Shown piece by piece: positions 37,286 to 63,952 of a stretch of 64,000 nt of DNA. Source of the stretch: a phage; the sequence record PX915677.1. One strand, written 5' to 3'. Numbering within the stretch: position 1 is the stretch's first letter; the number at the start of each line of letters is the position of its first letter. The translations under genes and the position numbers were made by a program. The notes below the pieces were generated by a model. It ran no database searches, had not been told where the DNA came from, and saw only the letters and a program-made list of their open reading frames with translations.

Positions 37286-37326
37286 AGAAAAGCCCTCAAG
37301 GAGAAATCCAAGAGGGCTTTATTTGT
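37286..37326. terminator. Bidirectional terminator at convergence of plus and minus modules
   Basis: AAAGCCCTC(14 nt)GAGGGCTTT flanked by A-run on left and T-run on right. Confidence 0.6.
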
Positions 37327-37373
37327 TTCTAAGTTTTAAAAACCATCAAATTCGTCATACATCCCAATTCTCT

Positions 37374-37466
37374 TCAGAAGTCTGGATGTTCATCTTCAAA
37401 GCATCCTGAGATGCCTCCATAGAACCAATCCGATTTACTTCCAAGGATAACAACTTCTTCATTCAT
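37374..37466 (-). CDS. Small ORF (30 aa) with strong RBS
   Basis: AGGAGG 5 nt upstream of ATG 37466; MNEEVVILGSKSDWFYGGISGCFEDEHPDF. Confidence 0.3.
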   Translation of the reverse strand: MNEEVVILGSKSDWFYGGISGCFEDEHPDF

Positions 37467-37474
37467 ATACCCTC

Positions 37475-37636
37475 CTAGATTGTGTTTATAAAATTAGTAA
37501 GTTTCTCTTCACTTTCATCAAAAGCTTTTCCAGCTGCTTCCATCTCCCAAGTATCGGCATTATCAATAAAGCTCTGAGCTTCTAGTAGGTCATGGATTAA
37601 GTCGAAGAGCTTGTTTTTATCTGCTTGTGTGATCAT
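37475..37636 (-). CDS. Small ORF (53 aa)
   Basis: AGGAA upstream of ATG 37636; acidic helical peptide. Confidence 0.3.
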   Translation of the reverse strand: MITQADKNKLFDLIHDLLEAQSFIDNADTWEMEAAGKAFDESEEKLTNFINTI

Positions 37637-37644
37637 GTCAGTTC

Positions 37645-37872
37645 CTAGATTAAATCGTAATACTGAATAATGTCAGAGAGTTTGAACTCTCGAATCTCAT
37701 CTTTCTCTACATCTATCGCTGTCATAATCCAACAAGGTTTGCCACCGTTATGAAAACGGGAGCTAGCAACGGAGGTTCGGAGTGGAATAACGGACCGGTC
37801 AGCAACCTCGCCTCTCCAATTGCGATAGCGAAAGCGAAGCACTTGTTGCGTAGATTTTTGATCATCACTCAT
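37645..37872 (-). CDS. Hypothetical small protein (75 aa; start moved to internal Met)
   Basis: ORF track 37645..38007 trimmed to MSDDQK start to remove long overlap with HNH gene. Confidence 0.4.
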   Translation of the reverse strand: MSDDQKSTQQVLRFRYRNWRGEVADRSVIPLRTSVASSRFHNGGKPCWIMTAIDVEKDEIREFKLSDIIQYYDLI

Positions 37873-38266
37873 TTCCTTTTTTGAATTGTTTTCTTGCATC
37901 ATTCTCTTCTTTTGTTTTAATCTTATGACAAGGGTCTTTACACAGAACTTGAAATCCCTCTTTCTCACACAGAGCACGAGAGATGATTTCATCCCAAGTT
38001 GCTTCATGATCTAAGGGAACTATAGGTTCTATGTGGTCAATAGCCATATCCTTTACAGGGTGGTCAGAACCACACATGGCACACTTAAAGTGCATTGCCA
38101 ATCTACCTGTCTTTGGATTAATCTTCTGCTCTGTCTTGGCGTCTGCTAGTGCATCGAACATGGGCTTCCACTTTCTAGTCAGAGAACGAATCCCTGACTT
38201 GATGAAAGAGTTATAACGAGCTTCAGTCCACATTCCACTACAGCGTATCTTCTCAGACTTCGCCAT
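37865..38266 (-). CDS. HNH endonuclease (133 aa)
   Basis: HFKCAMCG...AIDHIEPI zinc-finger HNH pattern. Confidence 0.65.
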   Translation of the reverse strand: MAKSEKIRCSGMWTEARYNSFIKSGIRSLTRKWKPMFDALADAKTEQKINPKTGRLAMHFKCAMCGSDHPVKDMAIDHIEPIVPLDHEATWDEIISRALCEKEGFQVLCKDPCHKIKTKEENDARKQFKKGNE

Positions 38267-38432
38267 AATCAGCTTCTTCCCAAACTCGTTTGTTTACACG
38301 ATGACTTACTTTGCCCTCACGAGGAATACGACCAGTCCGCTGATCAAACAGTTGGTGCTTAATCTTTTGGTCTTTACGAGATTCACGATTAGAGGAGTTT
38401 TCATCATATGAACGATAATCAAATTTACCCAT
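38256..38432 (-). CDS. Small basic ORF (58 aa)
   Basis: AAGGA RBS; stop overlaps HNH start. Confidence 0.3.
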
Positions 38433-38442
38433 TATAATATCC

Positions 38443-38955
38443 TTATTTTATCCAGTCTCTTTCTATATAGGAGGTTGTGAGCTTACGTCTCTCTGCTTCA
38501 GTGGAGAAGATGACTACTACACTTCCTTTAGTGTTACCACTAACACTTTGCTGTGTATCTGCTCTTGTGAAACTCACACGACCACCTGTTATGAAAACAA
38601 TCTCATCAGCATGGTTTATACACTTAGTAAACCACTTAACAGAAGTATCAGCTGGTAGCAATAAAACTGTACCAACTTTAAGTTTCTTGTTTTTGATTGC
38701 CAAGTCAACCCAAGGAGTTATGTCTGAATATGGAGGATTACACCAAGTGTAAGTGTTTCTGAACTCAGAGAAATCATAGGTTAGAGAATCCATTTCCTCT
38801 GTTATATATTTTTCTAGTAGATGATTCTTGTCACTAGATGCTATATCACAGGAGAATTCAAACCTTGTGTTAAAGAAATCAAACAGCCATTTAGGGGTTT
38901 GCCATAAATCTCTAATGTCTTCTGGGGTATTACTAGATCTATAATCTGTTACCAT
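38443..38955 (-). CDS. DNA N6-adenine methyltransferase, phage Dam type
   Basis: WQTPxxLF N-terminal motif, catalytic NPPY (WCNPPYSDI), conserved LLLPADTSVKWF block. Confidence 0.8.
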   Translation of the reverse strand: MVTDYRSSNTPEDIRDLWQTPKWLFDFFNTRFEFSCDIASSDKNHLLEKYITEEMDSLTYDFSEFRNTYTWCNPPYSDITPWVDLAIKNKKLKVGTVLLLPADTSVKWFTKCINHADEIVFITGGRVSFTRADTQQSVSGNTKGSVVVIFSTEAERRKLTTSYIERDWIK

Positions 38956-39791
38956 TCTCTATCCAACCATGTCCAATCAAATAAATCTTCCGGAGTTTGA
39001 CCAACAAAGAGCAGCCGAGCATTCTCAAGCATCTTCTCTTCATCTTCAGTATCGAACTTCTTATAATATTCCATTCGTACTATATGATACATGGTCCACT
39101 TATCTGTAACATCAGCTAGTAATTTAGCTGCTGCCTTCTTCCCTATACCTTGACGTCGAAGCTGAAGCTTACCACCCCACATAACCTCTTTACGTTCCCC
39201 ACATCCGGGGATATTATCCGTACCGTCTCCAATCAACATTTGATAGAAGAAGTTTTGCCATGAGATTAAATCAGATACGTAGTGAGGGGGAACCTCTTTC
39301 TGCCTTTCTCCACAAGCCCAGCGATAATGCCATCCGGGAGTTATCAACAAATCCTTGTCTCTAGTACAGATGATAGTATTCTTATCCCTACGTTGTCTTT
39401 CAGCTAGTGCATCATCAGCTTCTCTCCCAAAGACCTCAATGTATTCGTACTTGGCTTTAATGTAATCACCAACGTTTTGCCAGTGAAAAGGTCTTTCTCC
39501 GGGAGGTCTGTTTGCCTTGTAATCTTGCTGCTTAGCAACATCAAAACGGAAGTTACCACCTTCGCTGAAGTAGAACACAACCTTACTGCAACCTGAGCGA
39601 GCAATGATTGTATCTATCTTGTACTGAAGTCGTTCAATCATGAAATTGTAATCAACTGGAACACGTCCTGTGTCAAGAAAGGGATGCTCCTGAGTAAGAG
39701 CACCCACTTCATATCGAAGAACGTCAGCATCCACTATAGCAACTTCAGGGAGCTTAACTTCTTCCATAAATATCATCCTGAGCTTGAGCAA
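38949..39791 (-). CDS. 5-prime to 3-prime exonuclease / flap endonuclease
   Basis: IVDADVLRY, EADDALA, TRDKDL, GDGTDNIPG acidic clusters typical of FEN/Pol I 5-prime nuclease domain. Confidence 0.8.
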   Translation of the reverse strand: MLKLRMIFMEEVKLPEVAIVDADVLRYEVGALTQEHPFLDTGRVPVDYNFMIERLQYKIDTIIARSGCSKVVFYFSEGGNFRFDVAKQQDYKANRPPGERPFHWQNVGDYIKAKYEYIEVFGREADDALAERQRRDKNTIICTRDKDLLITPGWHYRWACGERQKEVPPHYVSDLISWQNFFYQMLIGDGTDNIPGCGERKEVMWGGKLQLRRQGIGKKAAAKLLADVTDKWTMYHIVRMEYYKKFDTEDEEKMLENARLLFVGQTPEDLFDWTWLDREW

Positions 39792-40643
39792 TAATCCAAT
39801 CTAGATCTGAGACTGCTGATTCGATGGTTGAGTCATTAAACAGTAGATATGTTTTTCTCTGTTCGCCTTCAATATATGAACGAGAGTCTCCATCAAAAGA
39901 GCAACCATCTCTAAGAACTTGGACAACTTGGACATGGAAATTCTTTTCTAGTTCTCGTACCTCTGCATCAAAACCTCCGTCAGTAAACACGACAATATCA
40001 TCCTGACCTAGCCCTTCTTGTTTGATACTTTTTACAGCAAGATTCCCCATATGATTGTTGCCAAACATAGGTTTTAAGAAGTCTTCACTTGTAGAAATCA
40101 TCAAATCTCTTACAGACTTCCCTCCCCATTCTGGTCTAGGTTTTTCTTTCCATTCACGATCTTCATAGCGTGCTAGAAAATTTTCTAGAGGTATTCCTAG
40201 TGCAGCAGCAGCTACTCTGTACATTGGCTCCTTGAAGGATTTGGTTGAATATCCGTGGTGGTATGAATGGGCATTGACCCAAGCATTGGCTATCGTATCT
40301 TTACCACAACCCGGAGGCCCATTAAGAATTACTACTAAAGGCTTATAGTGGGAATCTCCCACCATATTGGTCAGTGTTGGATTGCCTTGAGATTCCATTT
40401 CTAATTGCTCCGTGTGGTCATGTGAGTAATCTACTGGAGAAGTTTTGTTACCAGTAACTTTAGGTAAAATCGCTCTAGTTGTTTCTACGTACCTACCGCC
40501 ATCAACATTGATTTGAAACTCTACAAGTTCATTCTGTAATTCATACCCTGATAAGTTGGATAGCTCCTCCAACTCATCTCTGACGAAATTTAAATGTTTG
40601 ATTTTAATTGCAAGAGCTTTCTTTAAAGCTTTTACCTCTTCAT

Positions 40644-40653
<10 letters not shown>
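39754..40653 (-). CDS. P-loop kinase, dNMP-kinase-like, with N-terminal coiled-coil extension
   Basis: Walker A GPPGCGKDT; specificity not assignable from sequence alone. Confidence 0.55.
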
Positions 40654-42139
<1,486 letters not shown>

Positions 42140-42140
<1 letters not shown>

Positions 42141-42406
42141 TATTCTATTCCACGCTCTTTAAGAGCTTCTAACAATCCGTTGTGATTAGCAGCACATTCT
42201 GTGTACTGGTCCTGATACCACTCCAACGTAGTGGCTAGTGCTTTTCCTTGAGCACTCTCTAAAAGAGGTAGGTCAACCCTACATTCAGCTTTTAGGTTTG
42301 TTGGTAAGGGCATTGATTGCCTGCTGTTGTCGCTCGTTGAACAAGCTGATAAACTAAAAGCTAGCAAAATCCCCGTACAACTCAATAGCTTTTTCTTTAT
42401 ATGCAC
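42140..42406 (-). CDS. Lipoprotein (lipobox LSAC), candidate outer-membrane spanin subunit
   Basis: GTG start at 42406 with GGAAGGAG RBS; signal MHIKKKLLSCTGILLAFSLSAC; N-terminal coding overlaps 3-prime end of HNH gene. Confidence 0.5.
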
Positions 42407-42812
42407 ACCTAGCTCCTTCCAGTGTATCATGAAAACCAAGCCAAATAACCTTATCCTCGAATCCTATTCGAGCAGTCCATTTGTTAACATCCTTCCTATA
42501 CCCGACACCTTTTATGCCTGTTATAGAATTCTTCTGAGCAGATGTATTCATCTGATTCTGCGCATTGGTTGCTTTTCTTAGGTTAGTCCAAGAGTTGTTA
42601 GATTTAATCTGATCTTTGTGGTCAATATCAGTATCAGGGATTTCCCCTGTTTTTAAATACCAAGCCACTCTGTGCGCTTTATGCGCTTTTCCATTAAATC
42701 TAATAATAATGTATCCAGCATCTATCAAACAACCGGCTTCTTTTCCAGCAAACCTAGAGTTCCATTGATTGCTCTTCTTTTCAGAGCTTCTCCATGTTAG
42801 CTTTCCTGACAC
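42354..42812 (-). CDS. HNH homing endonuclease with AP2-type DNA-binding domain
   Basis: HNH region DIDHKDQIKSNNSWTNLRKATNAQN; AP2-like C-terminus (GVGYRKDVNKWTARIGF...LGFHDTLEGARCAY). Confidence 0.7.
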   Translation of the reverse strand: MSGKLTWRSSEKKSNQWNSRFAGKEAGCLIDAGYIIIRFNGKAHKAHRVAWYLKTGEIPDTDIDHKDQIKSNNSWTNLRKATNAQNQMNTSAQKNSITGIKGVGYRKDVNKWTARIGFEDKVIWLGFHDTLEGARCAYKEKAIELYGDFASF

Positions 42813-47357: not shown

Positions 47358-49202
47358 TTAGTGTGTATGCATCCAGTTAAGTCCAATCTGACAATCAGAT
47401 GCCAGAGGACATTCCATATTCAGATACTCGCCAGCTTTCTTAACACAAAGCTCGGTGTGCTCTTTGAGTTTCTGTACATCATTACGGTTTACTGAGAATT
47501 GACCTTCATCGTGCATATCAATTACCTTAGCACAACGAACCTTATCTTTCTCAATCCACTTGTTAAGGAACATCATAGCATATTTCATAACAACAGCACC
47601 AGCACATTGCAGGAGTGTGTTAAGGGCTTTATGAACCATAACCTTACCAGTGGCATCCCGTCTCATTGTAATCTTACGACCATCAACTCCAATCAAGTAT
47701 CCTTGAGCAGCTTTCTCTGTCATACGATCAATGAGGATTGCAATACATGGGTTCTCTGCTAAGAAACGTGCTCGCATCACTGAACCTTCGTCAGCCCCAC
47801 CACCTACAATTGAACCAAGCTTAGCATCACCAGCACCATAGTTGAATGCGTAGATAAACGTCTTAGCGTTGTCACGAGTAGGAAGACCAGCAAGTTTCTG
47901 GTTGTGGGAGTGGATATCACCTTCAAGGAGAATATCACGATACATAATAGCAGAAGCTAAACCACGTTCTGCCAGAGCTTTCTTAGCTGGGTTGTTCTCT
48001 TCAATTGCCTCAGCAAGCATATCCCTACACTCTTTAATGAGGTAGTGAGCGAGCATACGAAGTTCAAGTCCAGAACCATCATACCCTAAGAATACTTCTT
48101 TACCAGCGGGTATGTAATATTTGTAAGCACCTATAGGTTTATCTTTCTTCCCCGGCTTACCTTTCTCGTAAATTACGTTAGTACCTTTTCGTATATAACA
48201 ACCATCAGGAACAACGTTAGTAATAACGAAAGGACGAGAGTGATCACTGTCTGAGTTATAGTCAGACTCAAACAAACTGCGACACTCGTGACCAAACAGA
48301 CCACGGGAGGGAATATTAACCACGATACGATGTTTGAATCGAAAAGTCGGCGTAGCGCAGCTGTTAGCTTCTGCCGAAAGTTTACCATCTTCGCGTTCCT
48401 TTGCTATGAGTCCACTGATAAGACCTAGCCTGTGAGCCGCTACAACGCGTCTCTTAAGCAAACTTCCGACACTCCCTAGCTCACCCCCTAACCCTTCTTC
48501 AAGAGTCTCCTCGAGGTTTGTAGGAGCTGTAGGCCACTTGTTTGATGTGGCTAGTGCTTTCTTAATCTCATCAAACGTTACAGGATTACGGCGATTAGGG
48601 TTCAACCCCAAACCAAATACGTAAGCCTTCATGTAATTCTTAGTCTTAAACCTGAAATGCTTTTCTAAGAACTTCTTAATATCAGCGTCAACCATCTCGG
48701 CTGTCTGCTTCTGCTTAGCATTGCCTCGCATCCAAGCAGTATACCATGCTTGGTATGTTCCATACTTTCTCATATCTTTCTTAATTTCGAAAGTATTCCA
48801 AGGCTTCTTAGATACGTTAAACTCTGGAGGAAGGAAGCCCTCATCCATAAGAGCTTCTTTAACTCGTGCATCTTTAGATGGGTCAAAGTCTACATATTCG
48901 ACACAGGTGAAAGCTCCACCAATATCTTCTCTCTTCAGCCCAACCCTATCACAATAGGCTTGAGGCCACTTCTGTAAAGCTCCAGACTTCTTAAACGGCT
49001 TCATATAAGTAGAGCCATCTAATCTCATCTTAGGTAAGAGAGGAATCAACTCTCTGTCAATATTAACAATAATCTCTTTAAGGAGGTGAACATACCACCG
49101 AGCATTTCTTCGGTTGAAACTCACTCCGTGCTTTGCTTGCTTAGAGATTATATCAGCGACAGTCATCTCTGTCAAAAATGGAAGAGCGTCCGGGTTGCTC
49201 AC
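47358..49202 (-). CDS. DNA polymerase, family A, polymerase domain only (614 aa)
   Basis: Motif A region LGYDGSGLELRMLAHY, motif B RDNAKTFIYAFNYGAG, motif C VIDMHDEGQF; no exonuclease motifs in this ORF. Confidence 0.85.
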   Translation of the reverse strand: MSNPDALPFLTEMTVADIISKQAKHGVSFNRRNARWYVHLLKEIIVNIDRELIPLLPKMRLDGSTYMKPFKKSGALQKWPQAYCDRVGLKREDIGGAFTCVEYVDFDPSKDARVKEALMDEGFLPPEFNVSKKPWNTFEIKKDMRKYGTYQAWYTAWMRGNAKQKQTAEMVDADIKKFLEKHFRFKTKNYMKAYVFGLGLNPNRRNPVTFDEIKKALATSNKWPTAPTNLEETLEEGLGGELGSVGSLLKRRVVAAHRLGLISGLIAKEREDGKLSAEANSCATPTFRFKHRIVVNIPSRGLFGHECRSLFESDYNSDSDHSRPFVITNVVPDGCYIRKGTNVIYEKGKPGKKDKPIGAYKYYIPAGKEVFLGYDGSGLELRMLAHYLIKECRDMLAEAIEENNPAKKALAERGLASAIMYRDILLEGDIHSHNQKLAGLPTRDNAKTFIYAFNYGAGDAKLGSIVGGGADEGSVMRARFLAENPCIAILIDRMTEKAAQGYLIGVDGRKITMRRDATGKVMVHKALNTLLQCAGAVVMKYAMMFLNKWIEKDKVRCAKVIDMHDEGQFSVNRNDVQKLKEHTELCVKKAGEYLNMECPLASDCQIGLNWMHTH

Positions 49203-50627: not shown

Positions 50628-51365
50628 TTAAGCTTTCTTTTCCATTGCTTTAACAATCGCCTTACAGAAACCAGAACGAACAATATCATCTGATTCACCA
50701 TCTACAATCTCAGCAAACTCATACAGATCGTGTTCATCAATAAAGTTAGTAGCCCAAGTTAGACCACTCTCGCGACCACGCATATCATGCTGGTTTGTAT
50801 CACCCATACAGAACAATTGAGAGGTTTCTCCCAATCGAGTCATGATGGAGAAGGCTTCATCCTTAGTTGTGTTCTGGAACTCATCAACAATAACAATAGC
50901 ATCATTGAAAGAACGACCACGGAGATATTCCAGAGGTACAAACTCAATGTTACCATTTCCGATTTGGCATTCATAGAATCCCTTACCATATCGCTGAGTA
51001 ATAACATCAATGATAGGCATCAGGTAAGGCTCAAACTTCTCACGCATTCCTCCCGGAAGTAACCCAAGAGAGTTTCCCATGCCAACCGAAGGGCGACTCA
51101 GAATGATCTTCTGAATCTTACCACTCTTCAGTGCATCGATAACCGTGGAAGTGATTACAAAGGTCTTACCACAGCCCGCAGGAGCGTCTGTGAACACAAC
51201 TTGTTTAGTCTTAATAGCATTGAGTAGCTCAGACTGAAACTGGTTCTGAGGGACTACAGGCTTTGCTAAAACCACCTCTTCATACTCTCGCTTACCTTTA
51301 CGAGTAACAAGTGCTTCCCGACGAAGGTCTTTCCGTGATTCTTTCCGTGATTGACGACGACTCAT
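50628..51365 (-). CDS. phoH: PhoH-like ATPase
   Basis: Walker A APAGCGKTF, Walker B IVIVDEFQN, size and pattern typical of phage PhoH. Confidence 0.7.
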   Translation of the reverse strand: MSRRQSRKESRKDLRREALVTRKGKREYEEVVLAKPVVPQNQFQSELLNAIKTKQVVFTDAPAGCGKTFVITSTVIDALKSGKIQKIILSRPSVGMGNSLGLLPGGMREKFEPYLMPIIDVITQRYGKGFYECQIGNGNIEFVPLEYLRGRSFNDAIVIVDEFQNTTKDEAFSIMTRLGETSQLFCMGDTNQHDMRGRESGLTWATNFIDEHDLYEFAEIVDGESDDIVRSGFCKAIVKAMEKKA

Positions 51366-52656: not shown

Positions 52657-53313
52657 TTAACTCTCCACAGTTTTCTTCAGAGCTGCCCATGAGATTGGGT
52701 AGAGTTTAGCCATCTCTTCATCCAGAGATTTAGCAAACACTCGAACTTCATATTGAGCGTGAGATGAGAGTCGCTGACGACACAACTCAAACCAGCCATA
52801 CAAAGAACCAGTCCACACCCACTCAGTGATCATCCCCTGAGGAAGAACAAATCGAGCTTGCTCTGGTGCAATAAATTCAATCAACTTGTCATATGCTGCT
52901 AGAGAAGCTTCATATGCATCGTTAATCAGCATTAATGCTTCAGCTCGCTCTCCGTTGATGAGTTGAATCCCTGAACCTGCATGGAGGTCCGAAGGTCTCG
53001 CAAAAATCTCTTTAGGGATGAAGACTTCAACTGCTCCATCTTTATACCGCCGGGACATTTCGTTCCACGAGAATCCAACCTGATGCTTCTGTAGTTGACG
53101 AGCGATTGCAATTGGAGCCTTACAACGAAAGGACACTTGTGGGTGACGGAACGGAGTGCAGTGTTTCTCTCTAGCCAAGAAGTTAATCAGCCTAGTATCA
53201 CGATCATTCAAATCACCCTCTCGTACAACACCAAAAGAAACTCTTGCAGCATTAACAACAGTTTTATCACTGCCCATAGCTTCAATCAATGTTGCTTGCA
53301 ATTGTTCATTCAT
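52657..53313 (-). CDS. thyX: ThyX-like (flavin-dependent thymidylate synthase family) protein with altered signature motif
   Basis: VNAARVSFG, TPFRHPQVSF, KAPIAIARQL, SHAQYEV blocks align with ThyX; signature position reads KHQ-x8-S where ThyX has RHR-x7-S. Confidence 0.65.
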   Translation of the reverse strand: MNEQLQATLIEAMGSDKTVVNAARVSFGVVREGDLNDRDTRLINFLAREKHCTPFRHPQVSFRCKAPIAIARQLQKHQVGFSWNEMSRRYKDGAVEVFIPKEIFARPSDLHAGSGIQLINGERAEALMLINDAYEASLAAYDKLIEFIAPEQARFVLPQGMITEWVWTGSLYGWFELCRQRLSSHAQYEVRVFAKSLDEEMAKLYPISWAALKKTVES

Positions 53314-53785
53314 ACTTCAACTTCTCCTTGTTATAAGCAATCTCTGCTTCCTCTGGAGTATGGAAAGTTCCTAAATGCTTAGTCTTTCCGTTAACTCCGA
53401 TTATAGCTCTGAATTTTGTACCACTAGCCGTCTCTCTGATGTAAACACCCATTGGAAGTTTTCCAGCTTTTCCGGCTCTATTGTATTGTTTTCTGTTATG
53501 ACAGTTTGTAGATGGGTCAACATCTCTTAGGTTTTTAAGAGAGTCATCCAGTTTAATCTGGTTGATGTGATCAATCTCAAACTCAGGCATCTTTCCATAA
53601 GAGAAAAACCAAGCTAATCGACATGCTCTGTAAGATTTCCCTTCATAATAGATGTACCTGTAACCTAATGTTGAGACACACCCAGCAATGTTCCCTGATA
53701 CTCTCCTACCTTTGGTATTCTTCCACCTAAAGATTCCAGTATCAGGGTCATATGCTAAGTCTTCTTTTATCTTATCAGTTAACAC
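53306..53785 (-). CDS. HNH homing endonuclease with AP2-type domain
   Basis: FEIDHINQIKLDDSLKNLRDVDPSTNCHN plus AP2-like C-terminus. Confidence 0.7.
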   Translation of the reverse strand: MLTDKIKEDLAYDPDTGIFRWKNTKGRRVSGNIAGCVSTLGYRYIYYEGKSYRACRLAWFFSYGKMPEFEIDHINQIKLDDSLKNLRDVDPSTNCHNRKQYNRAGKAGKLPMGVYIRETASGTKFRAIIGVNGKTKHLGTFHTPEEAEIAYNKEKLKYE

Positions 53786-54050
53786 CTAAAGCTGTATCCA
53801 AAAATGCTTTCAGGTTTGCTTCAGTCTGCATACCAGAGAGGCTGTAATGTGTTCCACTGTTACGGTCAGGTACAACAAAAGCAGGGATGCTTCGTACACC
53901 ATACTTAACAGCTTGTTCACGACCATCACCTTCAAGGATGTTAATCTCTTCCACTTCTACATCAAACTCCTTAACAACCTTCTCAAAGGTAGGAGCCATT
54001 GCTTTACATGGAGCACACTGATCACTATAAAACTTAATTACTTTAGGCAT
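53775..54050 (-). CDS. Thioredoxin-fold protein (CxxC = CAPC)
   Basis: KFYSDQCAPCKAMAP near N-terminus, about 90 aa. Confidence 0.65.
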   Translation of the reverse strand: MPKVIKFYSDQCAPCKAMAPTFEKVVKEFDVEVEEINILEGDGREQAVKYGVRSIPAFVVPDRNSGTHYSLSGMQTEANLKAFLDTALGVN

Positions 54051-54298: not shown

Positions 54299-54862
54299 TT
54301 AGTAAGACACGTCACCACTTGAATGGGACATGTTGCTCTTGACGAAGTAGCAATACTTGCCAAGACCTTCATTAATTTCTTGAAGCATACTCTGATCGAC
54401 AGGGTAAGTGGCTAAATCGCCATCAAACTCATCCATCTTCTCAATAATACACATCAAGGTCATGCACATATCAGAGAGCATACCGTCCATGTCTAGATCA
54501 GCATTACCCTCTGAGAACCAAGCGTGGGATAGGTAGTTAGCTGCTGTAGCATCCACTTTAACACAGTGGTATCGCATACGTTCAGCAATACGATCTCCTA
54601 CTTGTCGTGCGTAATCTTCCAGCTCATCAAACATACCATGAACACCCTGAAATCCTGCACCAGAAACGTTCCAGTGGTAGTTCTTAGCTTTGATATGCAA
54701 GAGTTCCATGTTAGCTTGTAAGCAGCTCAGGATGTGTTCTAGGCTGTTTGCACTAATCATGCCTTGCATTGTTTCAAGGCGAGAGATTGAAAGCTCAGAC
54801 CGGTCTAACATACTATAACTGTCACGACCAATCTCAGGTAAATCAAAGACATTCTTATGCAT
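54299..54862 (-). CDS. Dps/ferritin-like protein (start moved to Met with GGAGAA RBS)
   Basis: NYHWNVSGAGFQGVHGMFDE matches Dps ferroxidase-site region (E. coli Dps AHWNMRGANFIAVHEMLDG, from memory). Confidence 0.55.
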   Translation of the reverse strand: MHKNVFDLPEIGRDSYSMLDRSELSISRLETMQGMISANSLEHILSCLQANMELLHIKAKNYHWNVSGAGFQGVHGMFDELEDYARQVGDRIAERMRYHCVKVDATAANYLSHAWFSEGNADLDMDGMLSDMCMTLMCIIEKMDEFDGDLATYPVDQSMLQEINEGLGKYCYFVKSNMSHSSGDVSY

Positions 54863-55184
54863 TTGGGTTTTCTCCATCAAGTTCAACTGAGTTAGCAACA
54901 TTACGTGCAATATTATCCATTACCTGCTGGGTAATTACGATGCAGTTCTGTGGGTCTACTGACTTAGAACGCCCCATTTCAGGGTCATACACCTTAACTC
55001 GCTTAGCAGTTGAACCTGTGACCTGAAGAACCTTCAACAGATATCCCTGATTACCAATAGACCAAGCAACAACATCACGATTCTTGATAAAGCGACCAAG
55101 CATATCACGATGATAAAACTGTTGCATCACCTTGGATTTTGTAATCTCTTCAGTGGGCGGGGCCACTTTACTCAAATCTAACAT
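54855..55184 (-). CDS. Hypothetical protein (109 aa)
   Basis: ORF track; AAATGTATA variant motif about 45 nt upstream. Confidence 0.5.
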   Translation of the reverse strand: MLDLSKVAPPTEEITKSKVMQQFYHRDMLGRFIKNRDVVAWSIGNQGYLLKVLQVTGSTAKRVKVYDPEMGRSKSVDPQNCIVITQQVMDNIARNVANSVELDGENPNA

Positions 55185-55872: not shown

Positions 55873-56406
55873 TTACACACCTTTAGATGCAACCACACCT
55901 TCAGAGTTATTATAACGACCCTTCACTGCGTAGGAATGTTCCCCTGCATGAGAGTGCTCAAACATAACCATTTGACCAACACGCATACCAGCACGAACTC
56001 GTAAGCTGTGGTGCTTGGTTACGTTATGGAATTCAAATGTCAGCTTACTGCTATTAAATCCTGCATCTGCCCAACCGGCGTGAAGGTGGTTCAAACCACA
56101 ACGAGCCATAGACGAACGCAAAACAAACAGGCTTGAGATGTTATCTGGAAGGTTAAACTCCTCCATAGAGTGAGCCAAGAAGAACTGACCCGGAGTGATA
56201 ACCAAACCCTCTTCAGGAATCTTTACTTCCTTCCACTGAAGATTCTCTTTCGCATCAATATCAACGATGCCATCAGCCTGTTCTTCAACAAGGATAGTAT
56301 CACCAATACGGATATCCACACTAGCAGCGTTAACATATTTATGCTCCGCATCCAGATAACCATTGTCAATTACATCGTGCAGTTCAATACTTCCTAGTAA
56401 ACCCAT
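55873..56406 (-). CDS. dcd: dCTP deaminase family protein
   Basis: NAASVDIRIG and GWADAGFNSSKLTFEFHN match Dcd-family motifs. Confidence 0.75.
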   Translation of the reverse strand: MGLLGSIELHDVIDNGYLDAEHKYVNAASVDIRIGDTILVEEQADGIVDIDAKENLQWKEVKIPEEGLVITPGQFFLAHSMEEFNLPDNISSLFVLRSSMARCGLNHLHAGWADAGFNSSKLTFEFHNVTKHHSLRVRAGMRVGQMVMFEHSHAGEHSYAVKGRYNNSEGVVASKGV

Positions 56407-56415
56407 TCTTATTCC

Positions 56416-57729
56416 TTAGTTATTTTCGTCTATTTCAAAAGAGATTCCACGACCCGCTTCATCGGCAAACCGAACTGTACGGGTTTGAGGCTGCAACACT
56501 TCAGGGTTGTTGGCAACAAATTGATCAGCGAGACTATCTCCCAAATCCTGTTCCATATCTTCATCAGTCCACACAGCCCTAACAGGTGCGTTGATATCAC
56601 CAACAGCGAAACCCTGACCAGAGAACTGACGTGCGCTAACAGTTAAGCCGTTTGGTCGACCACGAGAGGGTCTAGCCATCCATCGCTCCATAGAATCACT
56701 TGTAATACCAAGAGCTTCTTCAAAAGATGTTCTACGAGTAGGGCTTTCTCTTCGTGACTCTTGTGCTCGACGCATTGCAGGGGCTACAAACACCCCTTCA
56801 ATTGCATTGTGTCGGTTAGGTTCCTCTTCTCGACCAAGCAGATCACCACCCGTGTTAGTCGTTAAATTTGTCAACCCCTCAGACCAATACGCATGAATCT
56901 GACCAGAACCGTGAAGACTAGACATAATCTGAATCTCTTCATAAGGGATTCCAAAGAATCGACTCATGTCTCGGTTAACACAATATAGAGCACTTGTTGT
57001 ATCTTCAATAAGAGAAACCTGACCTAATCCATTGACTAGATGACTAACTGGCTGAGGTGTGGGAAGATATCGAGTTTGGGCCATGTATTGATGCGCAACT
57101 GCTGGAGAGGAAAATCTCAACACTTGTGAGTTAGGCCACTTCTTGTGAACATACCTGATTTCACGACTAGAAACAACCACTGGACAAGGGGAAGTCATAG
57201 CCAAATATCCGTGAGAAGTCATGAATAAGTTGTCAAGAGTCATCGCACCACGGCACATCATAGGAAAATTATCCAATACCTCTTCAATAGAAGTAGGATA
57301 ATTAAACATGAATTGGATACGAACCCCATTCCACTGAAACTCAATAATATCAGTGAATGTTAATTGAGAACCCCCAGCATAGGATTCGTTTGTAGCTTCA
57401 GCAAGAAGTGATGCATATTCAATATCTTGTGACTCTAGCCATTCCTTCACATTACTTTCAATCTCCCGTCCAAGCTCTTGCCAACGATCAGTTGGGATGA
57501 AAGTGTTTTGAGTTCTTGGTGTTTGTCCTCTGACAATAAAGATATCAATGTCATGTGGAGCTATGTTATTAAGGACAGCATCACGAACAGCCCCACCAGT
57601 AATGATGGGACAGATACCATCTGGAATCAAGTTGTTGTTAATCAACTGTTCAATGAAGTGACGACCAACAGTGATATCAGGTTGTTGAGCAACCTTATCT
57701 TCAATTTGGTTAATCGGGATAACAATCAT
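56416..57729 (-). CDS. Pol-beta superfamily nucleotidyltransferase with CCA-enzyme/poly(A)-polymerase-like head motif
   Basis: ITGGAVRDAVLNNIAPHDIDIF (GGxVRD ... DxD); remainder lacks recognisable CCA-enzyme neck/body motifs; Arg-rich C-terminal region; start moved to ATG 57729. Confidence 0.6.
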   Translation of the reverse strand: MIVIPINQIEDKVAQQPDITVGRHFIEQLINNNLIPDGICPIITGGAVRDAVLNNIAPHDIDIFIVRGQTPRTQNTFIPTDRWQELGREIESNVKEWLESQDIEYASLLAEATNESYAGGSQLTFTDIIEFQWNGVRIQFMFNYPTSIEEVLDNFPMMCRGAMTLDNLFMTSHGYLAMTSPCPVVVSSREIRYVHKKWPNSQVLRFSSPAVAHQYMAQTRYLPTPQPVSHLVNGLGQVSLIEDTTSALYCVNRDMSRFFGIPYEEIQIMSSLHGSGQIHAYWSEGLTNLTTNTGGDLLGREEEPNRHNAIEGVFVAPAMRRAQESRRESPTRRTSFEEALGITSDSMERWMARPSRGRPNGLTVSARQFSGQGFAVGDINAPVRAVWTDEDMEQDLGDSLADQFVANNPEVLQPQTRTVRFADEAGRGISFEIDENN

Positions 57730-57730
57730 T

Positions 57731-58288
57731 TTACATTTTCCAATATAATGAAGGTGGGTCGTAAGGGTCAAATCCCGTGAGTTCACACAAGAAAAGATAA
57801 ACCTTAACAGTCAAGTTAACGTCCTGTTCACAATAAGTAAACATATCTTCAGTGAAAGCATCCCATGCTTCCTCTTGCTCACCGTAGTCACCTTTAAGTT
57901 CCTCTAAGAACTCACCCCATTGCTTCAAGCCGTGACCTCTTGGGCCACGTCTAGGGTCGCCTTTCGGATACTCAGGACTGTCGCCAATACGGTCAGGTTT
58001 AAGATATCGACTAAGACATAAAGTGTCAAAGACGTTAAAATTATATTTAATCAAAGAGGGATACATCTTCTTCAGAGCAGGTAAGTCGAAGTCAATAATA
58101 TTATGACCCACTAGTACATCTGCTTCTGTCAGTTTACGAATCCCGTCTTCAATTTGGTGAGGCCGATAGCCCCACCTTTCACCAGTTTCAACATCGAAGA
58201 TATAAATACACCATACTTTAGTTATGTCATCGTACAGTGCATTACTCTCGATATCGAATGCAAACACTTTCTTCTTTTTCTTTACCAC
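57731..58288 (-). CDS. Stand-alone DEDD (DnaQ-like) 3-prime to 5-prime exonuclease
   Basis: Exo I FAFDIESN, Exo [12 protein letters not shown], Exo III YCEQDV. Confidence 0.8.
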
Positions 58289-60072
58289 GGTGAAGCTCCA
58301 TCTGCTTGGTTGACGAGAGAAGCTGCATCCTCTCCGTTAGTTAAAACGAATGGATTATCTTCATCAACTTCAAAGTCTTCCCTTTCTACAAGTCTACCGG
58401 TTTCGCTGATATACTTAGTATAACAGACACCTGTCTGACCGTAGTTACGTTCTTTCAGTAATCGAATGACTGAGAGGTTCTTAGCTAAGCCGTCAGCTTG
58501 CTTATCACGCTCAAAGCCAATGATACACTGACACCAACGCATAAGAGAACGAGAGCCAGTGAACTGTACTTCACGTACCTGTCCACCTTCTTCATGAGGA
58601 GCACCACCTGCCGGAGCATTAAGGTGAGATAACACGAAAGCGGTAAAGTCTAATTCTTTACACATACCAGCAAGCTCGGAAGCAATCTTACTGATTTCAG
58701 TGTTAATCTCTGAAGGTGTTAAATGAGATACCAGAGCGGTAATGTTATCAAGGATGATGAACTTACACTGGTTTTCAACTACCCAGAAACGGATACACTG
58801 TTTAATGTCTTCCCATTCATTCTGTCCGAAGTTGTCATACAAGAAGAATTTGTCTGCATAACGAAGTGCTTCATTACGCAAATCTTCCTCGTCATATTCA
58901 ACATCAGGTCGGTGGAAAGGAATTGATGCTGACTTACCAGCAATGTTCTTAACAGACATGCCTACCTTCTCTTCCAAGAAGAAGCCACCTCCATTAAAAC
59001 CATGCTCTAAGCACAGATGAGCAACCAGCTCGTGAGCAATGAGTGTTTTACCACTCCCTACTCCACCACCAATTGCTACCACCTCTCCCCATCGAATACC
59101 GAAGGTCATCTCATTCAGAGTCTTCCACGGATACGGGATACCCCACTCCGCTTTCTTCAGAGCATCATCAAGACAATCAAAGATTGTTACAGCACCAGCA
59201 GGAGATTCCCGCTTTGCTGAATACTTGAGAATGTTGAATAACTCTTGACCACGACCAGACAGAAGCATGTCATTCGCATCCTTAATCTCTTTCTCCACAC
59301 CGTTGTATGGGAAGGTTCCTTTAGGAATACGAGCAAACTTGACATGAGGGAATAAAGAACGACCTTTTGTTAAAGCTATCTCACCTGCATCATCGTTGTC
59401 CATGCAGAGCACAACCTCCTCAAAACCATTTACGAAGTCTCGGTTACGAGACAACACAGAAGAGATTGAACCTGCACCGAACGGTAAAGAAACACATGCT
59501 GGTTTAATGTTTGTTGCATTTGTAAAAGCTGTAAGGACATGGAAACCTGACATACAGGATAGCGGGTCTTCAAAAATGAAGAGCTTCTTGTTGTACACAT
59601 CTCCACGTTGAGCTTGTGCCATACCAAACAAATCTGCTTCTTTCACACTGCCGACGTAATAGAACTTCTTACTATCTAGCAGCTTAACCTCGTACCCGAC
59701 AATGTTTCCATCACGTTCACGAGGAAAGAAGTAACTGTCTGGTGTCTGACCATCAGTTTGACTCAGACCAATGCGACACTCAAACCGCTCTGATACAGCT
59801 TTAGGGATTAAACGGCGAGTGAGTTCACCCTGAGGAAGCTCTAAGCAATCATCTAAGACTTCTCTCAACTCTTCAGGGGATAACTCTTTCTTCTCGTTTG
59901 GAGTAGGTGTAGTGCCCTTTTCGAACACTTCGTAATTCCCACAACGGTTACAACTTCCCCACTCCTCACCAGTCTCTTCGTTACGGAAGAGAATCATGTG
60001 GTTGTGGGTTTTATCACGACCATGAGAGATACATTCCTTACAACCTGTGTCTCCCAAAATGATCTTTGACAT
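58282..60072 (-). CDS. Primase-helicase (T7 gp4-like)
   Basis: N-terminal Cys4 zinc finger, TOPRIM-like acidic motifs (EDPLS, DNDDAGE), DnaB-type Walker [10 protein letters not shown] and Walker B IILDNI. Confidence 0.85.
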
Positions 60073-60098: not shown

Positions 60099-60302
60099 TT
60101 AGTAGAACGAACGAATTTCATCCCACACTTGTTCCTGTTCTTTCCTATAAAAAGAAAGTTGGGTCTTGAACATCTCCACTGATGATTCAAAGTTTTTGGT
60201 TTGTGCAGCTTCAACGAAACGTTCATGTCGGTTGATTTTGCACCGTAGCATTAAATACTTGGCTTCAAGTCTCCGAAGAGCCTGCCTTTTCTCAAGATTC
60301 AC
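60099..60302 (-). CDS. Hypothetical small protein
   Basis: ORF track. Confidence 0.45.
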   Translation of the reverse strand: MNLEKRQALRRLEAKYLMLRCKINRHERFVEAAQTKNFESSVEMFKTQLSFYRKEQEQVWDEIRSFY

Positions 60303-60711
60303 TTTTCAGATACTCTGACCAGTCGCCAGATTCAACCAGAACATCTTGTTCTTCGTCGATGTGATAAATCCAAGCGATAACAGTTTCACCTGAGTCCATC
60401 TTAACAGCAATCTGAGTACGCTGATAGAAGCTGTCTTCAGGGCTACGTTTGTTGTAACCTTCCAGACGGTCATACGGACCTTCCAGACCTGCTTTGTCAG
60501 TAGCAAACACTTCTACACGAACAGGCTTATTGTTATTGCTGTGTGCGAGAGAGATGCTCGGGAAGTAGGAACCACCATAACGGAACAGATCAAAGTTGTC
60601 TTCAGTCCAACCTTCACCAATCGACTTAGCACCAGCTCGGTCATTAACTAAATAGTTAGCTTGACCACGACGAAGAGAACCATAAGTTGCTACGTAAATT
60701 ACTTCTGACAT
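60292..60711 (-). CDS. Gamma-glutamyl cyclotransferase-like (AIG2/GGCT fold) protein
   Basis: N-terminal VATYGSLRRGQANY matching the YGSL motif of GGCT/AIG2 family; 139 aa. Confidence 0.6.
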   Translation of the reverse strand: MSEVIYVATYGSLRRGQANYLVNDRAGAKSIGEGWTEDNFDLFRYGGSYFPSISLAHSNNNKPVRVEVFATDKAGLEGPYDRLEGYNKRSPEDSFYQRTQIAVKMDSGETVIAWIYHIDEEQDVLVESGDWSEYLKSES

Positions 60712-61412: not shown

Positions 61413-62615
61413 TTAGTAGTTTACAACAGTGCCATCGTTCAGGGTAAGGCTATTAATCTGCAACACACGACCAAGCTGACGATCACTAATTGGTGCGTTC
61501 CATCCAGAGCGGTAGAAGTTACGACCACAGAAGAACAAGATCACATTACTTGCTACAGTCGAACCGTTTTCAGGATGCTTGATGTTAGCGATATAATAAC
61601 CACGACGCAGATTACGACGGGTTACTGGGTTGATCTCTAACCCTTGCTCTTCAACTTGCATTGTTTCAGGAACAGGTTCCGAAGATTCTTCAGCAACTGG
61701 CTCGGAGCTTTCCCCTGATAGTGCGTAATCCTCATCACCTGCTGGTGAAAATGTTTCTTCTACTTCTTCCACAGGAAGTTCGTATGCAACACGATAGTCA
61801 GGCTCAACACCAGAGAAGCTCTTAACAAACTCAACGATGTTGTGAGTGTAAGTTTCCAGAGTTGTTCCAGTCAGTCCCGGAGCTGTGTTAACTTCCAGAA
61901 CCCAAGCGTTAGTATTTTTACTAATCAGGTCAACAGCACCAAAGTTCAAACCCAGAGCAGATACAGCTTTGTGAGCTTGAATCAGAACTTGATCAGGAGG
62001 CGCGTCAGTGAAGGCGTTAGAATAAACCCAACCAGTATGATGGTTACGAATATCTTCACGATAGGTTGACAGATCGCGGTAACCGTTACGACGAATCTTC
62101 TTCTGAACGTAAGTGATAACACCTTCGAACACATGAACACGCCATTCACGACGTGGGCCTTGGATGCCTTTGGTGTACAGAGGAGCATCCGCAACACCTT
62201 CTCGCGCAAGACGAACAGTAATACCTTCTCCAGAGTGACCAGTTAAGGTTCCACGTTCATAAACAATTTCATTCCGGTTCCAGTTCTGAGCTACTTCACG
62301 ATCGACGGTGTATTCAACAGTTTTGACTTCAGCTAAACGCAGTGCGTTAAATGCTGCAACTTTGTTAGCCGCTCGGTTCAAGGCAACCACAGAGTTCAAC
62401 ACAGTTGCGCCACCGAAGAAAGCATCATTGTATCGACGGTTTCCGTAGTTGACAACAATATCACCAACACGAGAACGGTAACGAGAACCCTCTGATACCA
62501 GAGACATTACGTTAGCATTTAAGCGAAGTTCCTGAATCTTAGTGTTAATTGCAGAAGTAAGTTCACGAACTGAATCAGAAGGGCCATAAGGAAGAACACG
62601 GATACGAGTAGTCAT
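61413..62615 (-). CDS. ATP-grasp family ligase with acidic linker and extra C-terminal domain (400 aa)
   Basis: GAVDLISKNTNAWVLEVNTAPGL matches ATP-grasp C-terminal signature; substrate unknown. Confidence 0.6.
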   Translation of the reverse strand: MTTRIRVLPYGPSDSVRELTSAINTKIQELRLNANVMSLVSEGSRYRSRVGDIVVNYGNRRYNDAFFGGATVLNSVVALNRAANKVAAFNALRLAEVKTVEYTVDREVAQNWNRNEIVYERGTLTGHSGEGITVRLAREGVADAPLYTKGIQGPRREWRVHVFEGVITYVQKKIRRNGYRDLSTYREDIRNHHTGWVYSNAFTDAPPDQVLIQAHKAVSALGLNFGAVDLISKNTNAWVLEVNTAPGLTGTTLETYTHNIVEFVKSFSGVEPDYRVAYELPVEEVEETFSPAGDEDYALSGESSEPVAEESSEPVPETMQVEEQGLEINPVTRRNLRRGYYIANIKHPENGSTVASNVILFFCGRNFYRSGWNAPISDRQLGRVLQINSLTLNDGTVVNY

Positions 62616-63058: not shown

Positions 63059-63952
63059 TTAACCTCTATTCAATGAACATTTAGGAGAATTACAATAAAC
63101 TTGATTCATAGAACCAAGCGTACAACTTTCAGCATCGCGCCACGGAATCTGCTTAAAACACTCTGAGCAGTATCCGAGGGTTGACCACATGGCTTTGGTG
63201 AAGTCAGTGCTTCGGTTTCCGTCGAAGCTGACAACAGTTTTTCGGAGAGCTGTTCGTGATTCAGGAAACACACCTGCTTTCTCAGCAGGTTCCTCCTTTT
63301 TTGGCTTAGTTGAGATTGCAAAAATACTGTTGCTACGTTTCTCAACATAAGCATCAACAACATCCTCCAGAGTGATGCCTGTCTGTTTCGCTGATGAAGG
63401 TAATATAGTCATACGACCAATCATTTCTTCAGTTACACGTAAAGCAAACTCGGGACGACGGGCGTTTGTTGTATCTGTTGCTTTAATCCATACATAACCA
63501 TCTTTGATCGTAGCATTAGATACTTTCTTCTTTACTTCTACAGCGCAGACTTTACAGATATCTTCACCACGAAGACGACTAAGTTCATCATCGAACTCAT
63601 TCTCTGTTTTAACTTCACCACAGATTTCACAAACACCAATAGGAGTTTCCTCCTCTTCTTCCTCTTTAGGTTTAGTCAAACCTTCCAGACATTCAGGATG
63701 CCAATAGCACTGATATGCGAAGACTGCTTTAGGTGCATCCTTCCAATCAATGTGTTTGTCACAACCACCACAATCACCATGAGAGTGTGCTTCCCAGAAT
63801 TTACGAGTGATAGTAACGCCGTTCTTGTTGACGAAACTATCATTCATATCAAAAGGGATATCATCATCGAAGTCAGCAGTAGTTGACTCAGGCTCCTTTT
63901 TCTCCAGAGATGGGTCAACAAAACGACCTGCTGTGATCACTAAGCGAACCAT
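63059..63952 (-). CDS. Cys-rich protein with multiple CxxC pairs (297 aa)
   Basis: ORF track; several zinc-finger-like Cys pairs. Confidence 0.55.
   Translation of the reverse strand: MVRLVITAGRFVDPSLEKKEPESTTADFDDDIPFDMNDSFVNKNGVTITRKFWEAHSHGDCGGCDKHIDWKDAPKAVFAYQCYWHPECLEGLTKPKEEEEEETPIGVCEICGEVKTENEFDDELSRLRGEDICKVCAVEVKKKVSNATIKDGYVWIKATDTTNARRPEFALRVTEEMIGRMTILPSSAKQTGITLEDVVDAYVEKRSNSIFAISTKPKKEEPAEKAGVFPESRTALRKTVVSFDGNRSTDFTKAMWSTLGYCSECFKQIPWRDAESCTLGSMNQVYCNSPKCSLNRG

Follow-up and report, generated by a model that had tools for sequence, protein, structure and literature searches.

Flavin-dependent thymidylate synthases (ThyX) are recognised by the signature R-H-R-x7-S, and the question raised here is what becomes of such an enzyme when both arginines are exchanged. 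The case at hand is a thyX-like gene in a 64,000 nt stretch of phage DNA (record PX915677.1, in the following the window). The window derives from a phiEco32-like coliphage (genus Kuravirus, subfamily Gordonclarkvirinae), and the genes around thyX are syntenic with those in the Kuravirus WFI101126 record. The gene is located on the minus strand (52657..53313), starts with ATG preceded by an AAGGAG ribosome-binding site 10 nt upstream, and encodes 218 aa. Its product reads K-H-Q in place of R-H-R. A preliminary description of the window had read this as a hint of altered substrate or chemistry, or else of a non-catalytic role. Our analysis lends no support to that proposal: the motif is normal for a large phage clade, the core is invariant, and basic residues have been regained at other positions. 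Judged from these sequence patterns, the gene probably encodes a conventional FAD (flavin adenine dinucleotide)-dependent thymidylate synthase with a rewired set of phosphate-binding residues.

By sequence and predicted fold, the 218 aa protein is a full-length ThyX homologue, belonging to a phage subfamily that lacks R-H-R. The Pfam domain Thy1 (PF02511) matches residues 8-206 with 149.6 bits (cut-off 24.8) and is covered from profile position 1 to 190 of 191. The NCBIfam thyX equivalog TIGR02170 scores 127.8 bits (cut-off 87.9), and the protein is assigned to PHROG 85 (thymidylate synthase). HMMER finds the ThyX structures of Thermus thermophilus (6j61, E=5e-30) and Thermotoga maritima (1kq4, E=1e-23) as well as PolB (4p5a, E=2e-17); the best sequence identity to any PDB structure is ~30-33%. 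The AlphaFold2 model, a monomer without ligands, reaches a mean predicted local distance difference test score of 90.3 and a predicted template modelling (TM) score of 0.84. Using this model, all top Foldseek matches are ThyX crystal structures, the first being 1o27_A from T. maritima (TM 0.82, E=1e-17). The assignment to ThyX made in the preliminary description is in line with all of this. Its counterpart in Escherichia virus TH06 shares 99% identity with it and gp065 of Kuravirus WFI101126 95%, and related GenBank records already annotate the gene as 'thymidylate synthase'.

The signature segment (53044..53088, minus strand; translation KHQVGFSWNEMSRRY) reads K76-H77-Q78-VGFSWNEM-S87-R88-R89-Y90 and corresponds to R78-H79-R80-x7-S88-G89-R90-Y91 of T. 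maritima. In the HMMER alignment against T. maritima (1kq4/1o26) and T. thermophilus (6j61) ThyX, 'ARQLQKHQVGFSWNEMSRRY' stands opposite T. maritima 'ARQWFRHRIA-SYNELSGRY'. K76, H77 and Q78 fall on R78, H79 and R80, followed by a one-residue insertion, such that the spacing to the serine is x8, not x7. MAFFT alignments return the same register. Hence of R-H-R-x7(8)-S only the histidine and the serine are retained, exactly as had been read by eye. A shifted alignment as cause of K-H-Q is ruled out, given that HMMER and two MAFFT alignments concur and that no RHR tripeptide occurs in the 218 aa protein; the check by multiple alignment which the preliminary description had proposed thus uncovered no R-H-R elsewhere.

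K-H-Q is present in 119 of the 120 nearest proteins (53-89% identity), the remaining one carrying K-S-Q, which argues that the variant is neither an error nor due to chance. An alignment of 44 sequences shows K76 and Q78 as invariant and H77 as kept in at least 90%. A sequencing error or pseudogene is ruled out by this conservation and by the intact fold.

How far the variant extends was assessed with an exhaustive HMMER search over 1.84 billion cluster representatives. R-H-R is absent from all of the best 150 matches (~40-55% identity). For the counts below, a clade set of 271 sequences at 40-90% identity was used, with positions in T. maritima (Tm) numbering unless residues of the phage protein are named. 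The first motif position is mostly lysine (237/271; arginine 32/271) and the second mostly histidine (252/271; serine 17/271). The third is glutamine in 202 sequences, threonine in 22, lysine in 14, valine in 8 and histidine in 7, with methionine among the others; arginine occurs just three times. Likewise, 80 viral loci from IMG/VR comprise 64 with K-H-Q, 13 with K-H-T, two with K-H-S and one with K-H-R. Overall, the pattern [K/R]-[H/S]-x describes the site in all 270 nearest database proteins and in these 80 loci. Lysine is a conservative exchange for the first arginine, and altered chemistry is thus not supported by it. The hypervariable third position argues against a new specificity determinant.

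The branch is seemingly viral. A pattern scan of 185,579 prokaryotic species, each represented by a single genome, which reaches close relatives only, returned just two tiny contigs that are probably phage contamination; close relatives are thus essentially confined to viruses. None of five Kuravirus-like metagenome loci has lost the gene, and about 100 records of related phages retain it as well. Taken together, the sequences suggest that the KHQ-type motif is the normal state of a large, apparently phage-only ThyX branch and not a local oddity.

The loss of R-H-R does not stand alone. As reference we used 120 canonical ThyX sequences, some of which form a Thermotogae-like group and the others a group ~26-32% identical to T. 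maritima ThyX. All of them carry R-H-R, and E58, R80 and R165 are each present in 120/120. In the clade, glutamate at position 58 is found in 0/271 sequences and replaced by arginine in 148/271; the phage protein has R56 at this site (codon 53146..53148, minus strand, calculated from the open reading frame (ORF) start at 53313). R80 is left in 3/271 and corresponds to Q78. R165 remains in at most one of 271, with Y, A, L or F instead, and is Y172 in the phage protein (codons of S170-L171-Y172, aligned with N163-A164-R165: 52798..52806, minus strand). The two canonical FAD-phosphate ligands R80 and R165 and their invariant partner E58 are therefore all absent. N163 has become serine in 259/271 sequences, including the phage protein (S170). 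Position 89 changed in the opposite direction: it is glutamine or glycine in 114 of the canonical sequences (Q 77, G 37) and arginine in one, whereas 252/271 clade members have arginine, R88 in the phage protein. The 15 clade sequences with methionine at 89 all carry R87 ('WNER-S-M-RY' versus 'WNEM-S-R-RY'), so that a basic residue beside the loop serine, at position 87 or 89, is found in 267/271.

Basic residues at positions 58 and 169 exclude each other. In a neighbour-joining tree with 156 tips, 35 tips are basic at position 58 (~8 changes) and 99 at position 169 (~18 changes), but no tip is basic at the two positions together. Precisely one of positions 58, 80, 165 and 169 is basic in 129 tips, while ~15 of the 156 representatives lack a basic residue at all four. 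On the level of sequence, the loss of R-H-R is hence one of four linked changes (positions 58, 80, 165 and 89). The E58-R80-R165 network is dismantled in the clade, the phosphate-gripping arginines having apparently moved to other positions.

In contrast to this network, the remaining active site is essentially untouched. Conservation in the clade amounts to 269/271 for H53, 261 for Q75, 270 each for E86, S88, Y91 and E144, 269 for R90, and 271 each for R147 and R174. The phage protein carries all of them as H51, Q73, E85, S87, Y90, E151, R89, R154 and R181, respectively. Q75, E86, S88, R90, Y91, R147 and R174 make up the set known or inferred to bind deoxyuridine monophosphate (dUMP) and to act in catalysis, H53 and E144 belong to the flavin/folate site, and R147 and R174 are found in 120/120 canonical sequences too. 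The roles of H53, Y91, E86 and S88 at the dUMP/flavin/folate site have been described for T. maritima ThyX (PMC11940539). H79 is kept in 252/271 and T/S55 in 239/271, position 169 being variable. Among the relatives at 53-89% identity ~60 positions are invariant, all catalytic residues included. Such constancy of the uracil-reading, flavin- and folate-contacting residues does not support an altered substrate or chemistry; neither do the lost arginines, as they are matched by basic residues gained elsewhere.

Inteins typically target essential active-site motifs. Four relatives contain inteins (Intein_splicing plus HNH) in the Thy1 domain at profile positions 75-81, i.e. inside the K-H-x...S motif. 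Insert- or fusion-bearing relatives are P0122, P0134, P0194, P0249, P0196 and P0169, none of them in the window; one carries a LAGLIDADG domain, and P0169 is a natural fusion of ThyX with a T4-type deoxynucleoside monophosphate (dNMP) kinase domain (PF21448). The inteins in the motif and the kinase fusion, both seen at the sequence level, point to a selected enzymatic function in the nucleotide pool.

Canonical ThyX is a homotetramer with bound FAD, the active sites of which are built from three subunits. R-H-R forms hydrogen bonds with FAD at its AMP phosphate, ribityl and FMN phosphate, and its first arginine additionally contacts the isoalloxazine and dUMP; the FAD phosphate is also bound by Arg190 of Mycobacterium tuberculosis ThyX, or Arg165 in the Helicobacter pylori enzyme (PMC6514825). 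The reduced T. maritima enzyme has the guanidinium of R78 directed at N1/C2=O, where it stabilises FADH-; in general this role falls to 'a basic residue' (PMC11940539). Direct hydrogen-bond partners of dUMP are R78, R80, S88 and R90, and in PBCV-1 ThyX the pocket for the dUMP phosphate can take up the side chain of residue 89 (PMC3498832). The preliminary description was thus correct in that the arginines contribute to dUMP binding. The main documented role of R-H-R is nevertheless not dUMP binding but contacting the FAD phosphates and ribityl and stabilising the reduced flavin at N1/C2=O.

From the observed sequence pattern, conservation and covariation we infer a spatial compensation as follows. 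K76, at the first motif position, would keep a positive charge facing N1/C2=O of the flavin. R88, beside the serine of the catalytic loop, would replace R80 at the dUMP phosphate. R56 would take over from R165/R80 at the FAD pyrophosphate, a task that may be fulfilled by R169 or K80 in other subclades. The product would be the ordinary one: ThyX would methylate dUMP to dTMP with methylene-tetrahydrofolate (CH2THF) and reduced flavin. Within the infected cell the phage deaminase Dcd would convert dCTP to dUTP, the host Dut dUTP to dUMP, ThyX dUMP to dTMP, and the phage dNMP kinase dTMP to dTDP. This route may provide more dTTP when the A+T-richer genome of the phage is replicated. The G+C content of the window is ~42% and that of E. 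coli ~51%, which fits a demand for extra dTTP. A need for extra dTTP has been argued for chloroviruses (PMC10142491).

Several points weigh against an ordinary synthase. The compensation proposed above rests on covariation and on residue roles taken from canonical structures. Mutagenesis of M. tuberculosis ThyX, as cited in PMC2386288, found the ThyX motif to be necessary for activity; the loss of two arginines is thus not trivially neutral. The literature search returned no assayed or solved member of the clade, and the closest PDB entry shares the ~30-33% identity mentioned above. Moreover, the BASEL completion study (PMC11990801) describes Gordonclarkvirinae, in its passages on the group, as remarkably resistant to restriction-modification (RM) systems with no known modification pathway. 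Resistance of this kind would leave room for a non-canonical pyrimidine metabolism.

Among the alternatives, a changed handling of the cofactor survives best, though we regard it as rather unlikely. The reaction would still lead from dUMP to dTMP, while the ADP part of FAD would be bound otherwise, FAD would act as a loose co-substrate, or FMN or a different reductant would be used. The lost residues are the very ones documented to contact FAD at its phosphates, ribityl and AMP moiety (PMC6514825), and the exchange of N163 for serine, the variability of position 169 and the ~15 of 156 representatives lacking a basic residue at positions 58, 80, 165 and 169 would agree with this alternative. 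However, in most members one of positions 58, 80 and 169 is still basic, as if a phosphate ligand had been retained, and the strong retention of H79 and T/S55 speaks against this alternative as well.

A second alternative concerns the product. 5-hydroxymethyl-dUMP has been recovered upon acid quench of the flavin-dependent thymidylate synthase reaction. If the reductive step were left unfinished, a C5-modified dUMP such as 5-hydroxymethyl-dUMP, with water trapping the exocyclic-methylene intermediate, might be released, phosphorylated by the phage dNMP kinase and put into DNA. Such a modification would fit the restriction resistance of Kuravirus-like phages. EcoRI, EcoRV and EcoKI sites remain in the window, so that their loss does not account for the resistance, and the phage encodes its own dNMP kinase and dCTP deaminase. 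If true, this would be the first flavin-dependent (ThyX-family) DNA base-modification enzyme and would explain the RM resistance of Gordonclarkvirinae. We nonetheless consider it very improbable. The same motif type is found in hundreds of unrelated phage lineages in varied contexts and is not specific to the RM-resistant group. The known phage enzymes making 5-hydroxymethyldeoxyuridine (5-hmdU) all belong to the ThyA family (PMC8989533, PMC13458397). Scans of window ORFs, covering part of them, returned no homologue of a 5-hmdU DNA kinase or of aGPT-Pplase. Furthermore, phiEco32 DNA was restriction-mapped (PMC9965538), the record of a close relative annotates an anti-restriction protein, and a simpler candidate cause of resistance is a phage N6-adenine methyltransferase encoded in the window at 38443-38955 (minus strand; TIGR01712 equivalog, 131.6 bits, cut-off 97). 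With the latter the phage has one covalent DNA-modifying enzyme.

ThyA-family dUMP hydroxymethylases from phages that hypermodify thymidine (SPO1, ViI, M6, SH-Ab 15599) resemble the phage protein insofar as they are phage enzymes of the nucleotide pool and attach a one-carbon unit to C5 of dUMP, often in company of a deoxycytidine deaminase (PMC8989533, PMC12686479). They differ from it in an unrelated fold and mechanism (cysteine nucleophile, flavin-free). A ThyX-family hydroxymethylase is not described in the literature searched.

DNA containing deoxyuridine (dU-DNA) has been speculated for Gordonclarkvirinae from the dCTP deaminase and an adjacent nucleotidyltransferase (PMC11990801); ThyX is not mentioned in the passages of that study on Kuravirus/Gordonclarkvirinae. 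Phages with dU-DNA (PBS1-like) combine a dCTP deaminase with dTMP/dTTP hydrolases and do without thymidylate synthase (PMC12697855). The window phage does not match this picture, since its ThyX is intact and conserved and it encodes a dNMP kinase too; a dTMP phosphatase or dTTPase was not recognisable among the window ORFs in a non-exhaustive scan. A conserved, apparently functional ThyX together with a dNMP kinase argues against dU-DNA in this phage.

Palindromes are markedly depleted in the window. Six-base palindromes occur 687 times versus 1077 expected from base composition, and twelve are absent, including the BamHI, PstI, SacI, KpnI and SmaI sites. GATC is present at half the expected number (116 versus 237) and CCWGG just twice. 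Site avoidance as the full cause of restriction resistance is ruled out, as sites for EcoRI (11), EcoRV (34), HindIII (35), EcoKI (8) and EcoP1 (98) remain.

Two further genes of the window may touch on DNA modification. The nucleotidyltransferase (456 aa, 56416-57786, minus strand) adjoins the dCTP deaminase gene and was singled out by the BASEL authors as a possible DNA-modification enzyme (PMC11990801). It shows only a weak match to the PolyA_pol head domain (E=0.002) and diverges fast, with 33-88% identity in five Kuravirus-like loci (L014-L018) versus 87-100% for PolA, PhoH and the primase-helicase. A protein of 146 aa (41700-42140, minus strand) corresponds to the antitoxin DarG, a DNA ADP-ribosyl glycohydrolase, over the macrodomain half of the latter (NF048014, E=6e-41). 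Its 140.7 bits stay below the full-length cut-off of 250, only model residues 6-144 of 338 being covered, and PHROGs labels it 'phosphatase'. By its sequence this DarG-like protein could serve as phage counter-defence against DarT-type ADP-ribosylation of thymidine in DNA.

A different nucleotide substrate is at best a remote prospect. Here dCMP would be converted to 5-methyl-dCMP, or UMP would be methylated as by PolB in polyoxin biosynthesis. The first arginine of R-H-R contacts the nucleotide in canonical enzymes and is a lysine here, and PolB is a detectable homologue. On the other hand, the known or inferred nucleotide contacts R174, R147, R90, Q75, S88 and E86 are invariant, no acidic residue able to read the amino group of cytosine appears, and there is no sign of ribonucleotide recognition either. 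The protein is not closer to PolB (the UMP C5-methylase of 4P5A) than to bona fide ThyX, which match better by the E-values given above, and the neighbouring dCTP deaminase removes deoxycytidine and supplies deoxyuridine. Finally, next to no credence can be given to the view that the protein is a ThyX relic that has decayed and lost catalysis, or that it does no more than bind nucleotides, a view which has the departure from the textbook R-H-R as its sole support and is contradicted by the full length, the confident fold, the ~60 invariant positions with all catalytic residues, the retention of the gene in Kuravirus-like loci and phage records, and the inteins maintained in the motif of some relatives.

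By their ThyX, isolated phages split into two types. The variant type comprises Pseudomonas phage LUZ100, Rheinheimera Barba phages (e.g. Barba16S) and the Acinetobacter N4-like phage Ab2712 with K-H-K, Streptomyces phage Amabiko with K-Y-A, and Yersinia/Erwinia/Pectobacterium PY100-like phages with K-H-Q. Like the Kuravirus protein, these have lysine first, no arginine at the third position, S-R-R-Y, no R165 and a 'PEQAR..LPQ' helix. Unlike it, they carry the compensating basic residue at position 80 (K) or 169 (R) and not at 58, and most lack an adjoining dCTP deaminase; identity to the Kuravirus protein is 33-54%. The canonical type with R-H-R is found in Gordonia phage Burley, Mycobacterium phages ValleyTerrace and Conspiracy, Halorubrum phage HRTV-14, Synechococcus phage S-H38 and Ruegeria phage V13. 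Their ThyX proteins, phage-encoded and similar in size, differ from the Kuravirus protein in keeping R-H-R and E58 as well as R165 (except V13) and in having glycine or glutamine at position 89. In Burley and ValleyTerrace the spacing is already x8, R-H-R being followed by a 'GFS/GWS' insert. Compared with canonical ThyX in general (T. maritima TM0449, 1O26/1O27, 220 aa; T. thermophilus, 6J61; PBCV-1 A674R, 2CFA; M. tuberculosis, 2AF6), the Kuravirus protein shares the Thy1 domain and fold, the S-x-R-Y loop and, with its 218 aa, the size of the T. maritima enzyme, but departs from them by K-H-Q-x8-S for R-H-R-x7-S and by the exchanges E58 to R, R165 to Y, N163 to S and G/Q89 to R.

The thyX-like gene lies in the early/replication arm of the phage, and the genes listed here share its strand (minus). 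They comprise DNA polymerase A (47358-49202), PhoH (50628-51365), thioredoxin (53775-54050), a ferritin/Dps-like protein (54299-54910), dCTP deaminase (55873..56406) and the primase-helicase (58282-60072). The module with dCTP deaminase, thioredoxin and a Dps-like protein noted earlier was therefore recovered in full. The deaminase (177 aa; Pfam DCD, 118.5 bits; TIGR02274 equivalog, 107.6 bits, cut-off 92.8) is the putative supplier of dUTP/dUMP, and in Kuravirus-like loci its gene is syntenic with thyX. A dNMP kinase of 299 aa (39754..40653, minus strand; PHROG 139, E=3e-56) would account for the step from dTMP to dTDP. In the 80 viral loci, variant ThyX is located in replication modules, adjoining PolA and primase-helicase, on many unrelated phage backbones. 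It is accompanied by dCTP deaminase only in Kuravirus-like and related genomes, and 12 of the 80 loci have a homologue of the dNMP kinase no more than 10 kb away. None of the 80 has a ThyA homologue at such a distance from the thyX-like gene.

Between thioredoxin and thyX an HNH homing-endonuclease ORF is inserted (159 aa, 53306-53785, minus strand), its end overlapping the start codon of thyX by 8 nt; in WFI101126 a hypothetical ORF of 204 nt is found here instead. A second HNH endonuclease is encoded at 42354-42812 (minus strand). Beyond the primase-helicase gene, the minus strand encodes a GGACT gamma-glutamyl cyclotransferase (60292-60711), a RimK-like ATP-grasp ligase (61413-62615; PHROG 'ribosomal protein S6 glutaminyl transferase') and a protein similar to glutamine-fructose-6-P aminotransferase, namely to the C-terminal portion of that enzyme (63059-63952). 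This set beside the replication genes looks like an amino-acid/peptide ligation module. ORFs on the plus strand extend over ~7.7-37.3 kb and include the longest ones of the window. The GC skew changes its sign near 38 kb (about 37300-38400), at the switch from plus-strand ORFs to the early/replication genes on the minus strand.

The literature search yielded no described ThyX lacking R-H-R, no assayed phage ThyX of this clade and no ThyX-derived DNA modification. The subfamily-wide replacement of the signature together with its linked compensations thus appears to be undescribed. R-H-R-x7-S is treated as a defining and strictly conserved mark of ThyX, and an evolutionary analysis excluded sequences more than two dissimilar residues away from RHRX7S (PMC2826268). 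From this mark a whole phage branch departs, which takes in the top 150 clusters at 50% identity without exception. The finding bears on studies of the ThyX mechanism as well as on how viral thyX genes are annotated and filtered by motif. For Gordonclarkvirinae, it points to thyX as a specific gene of possible relevance to their RM resistance. If the enzymes of the branch are active, the canonical arginine network would be one of at least two workable ways to hold FAD and dUMP.

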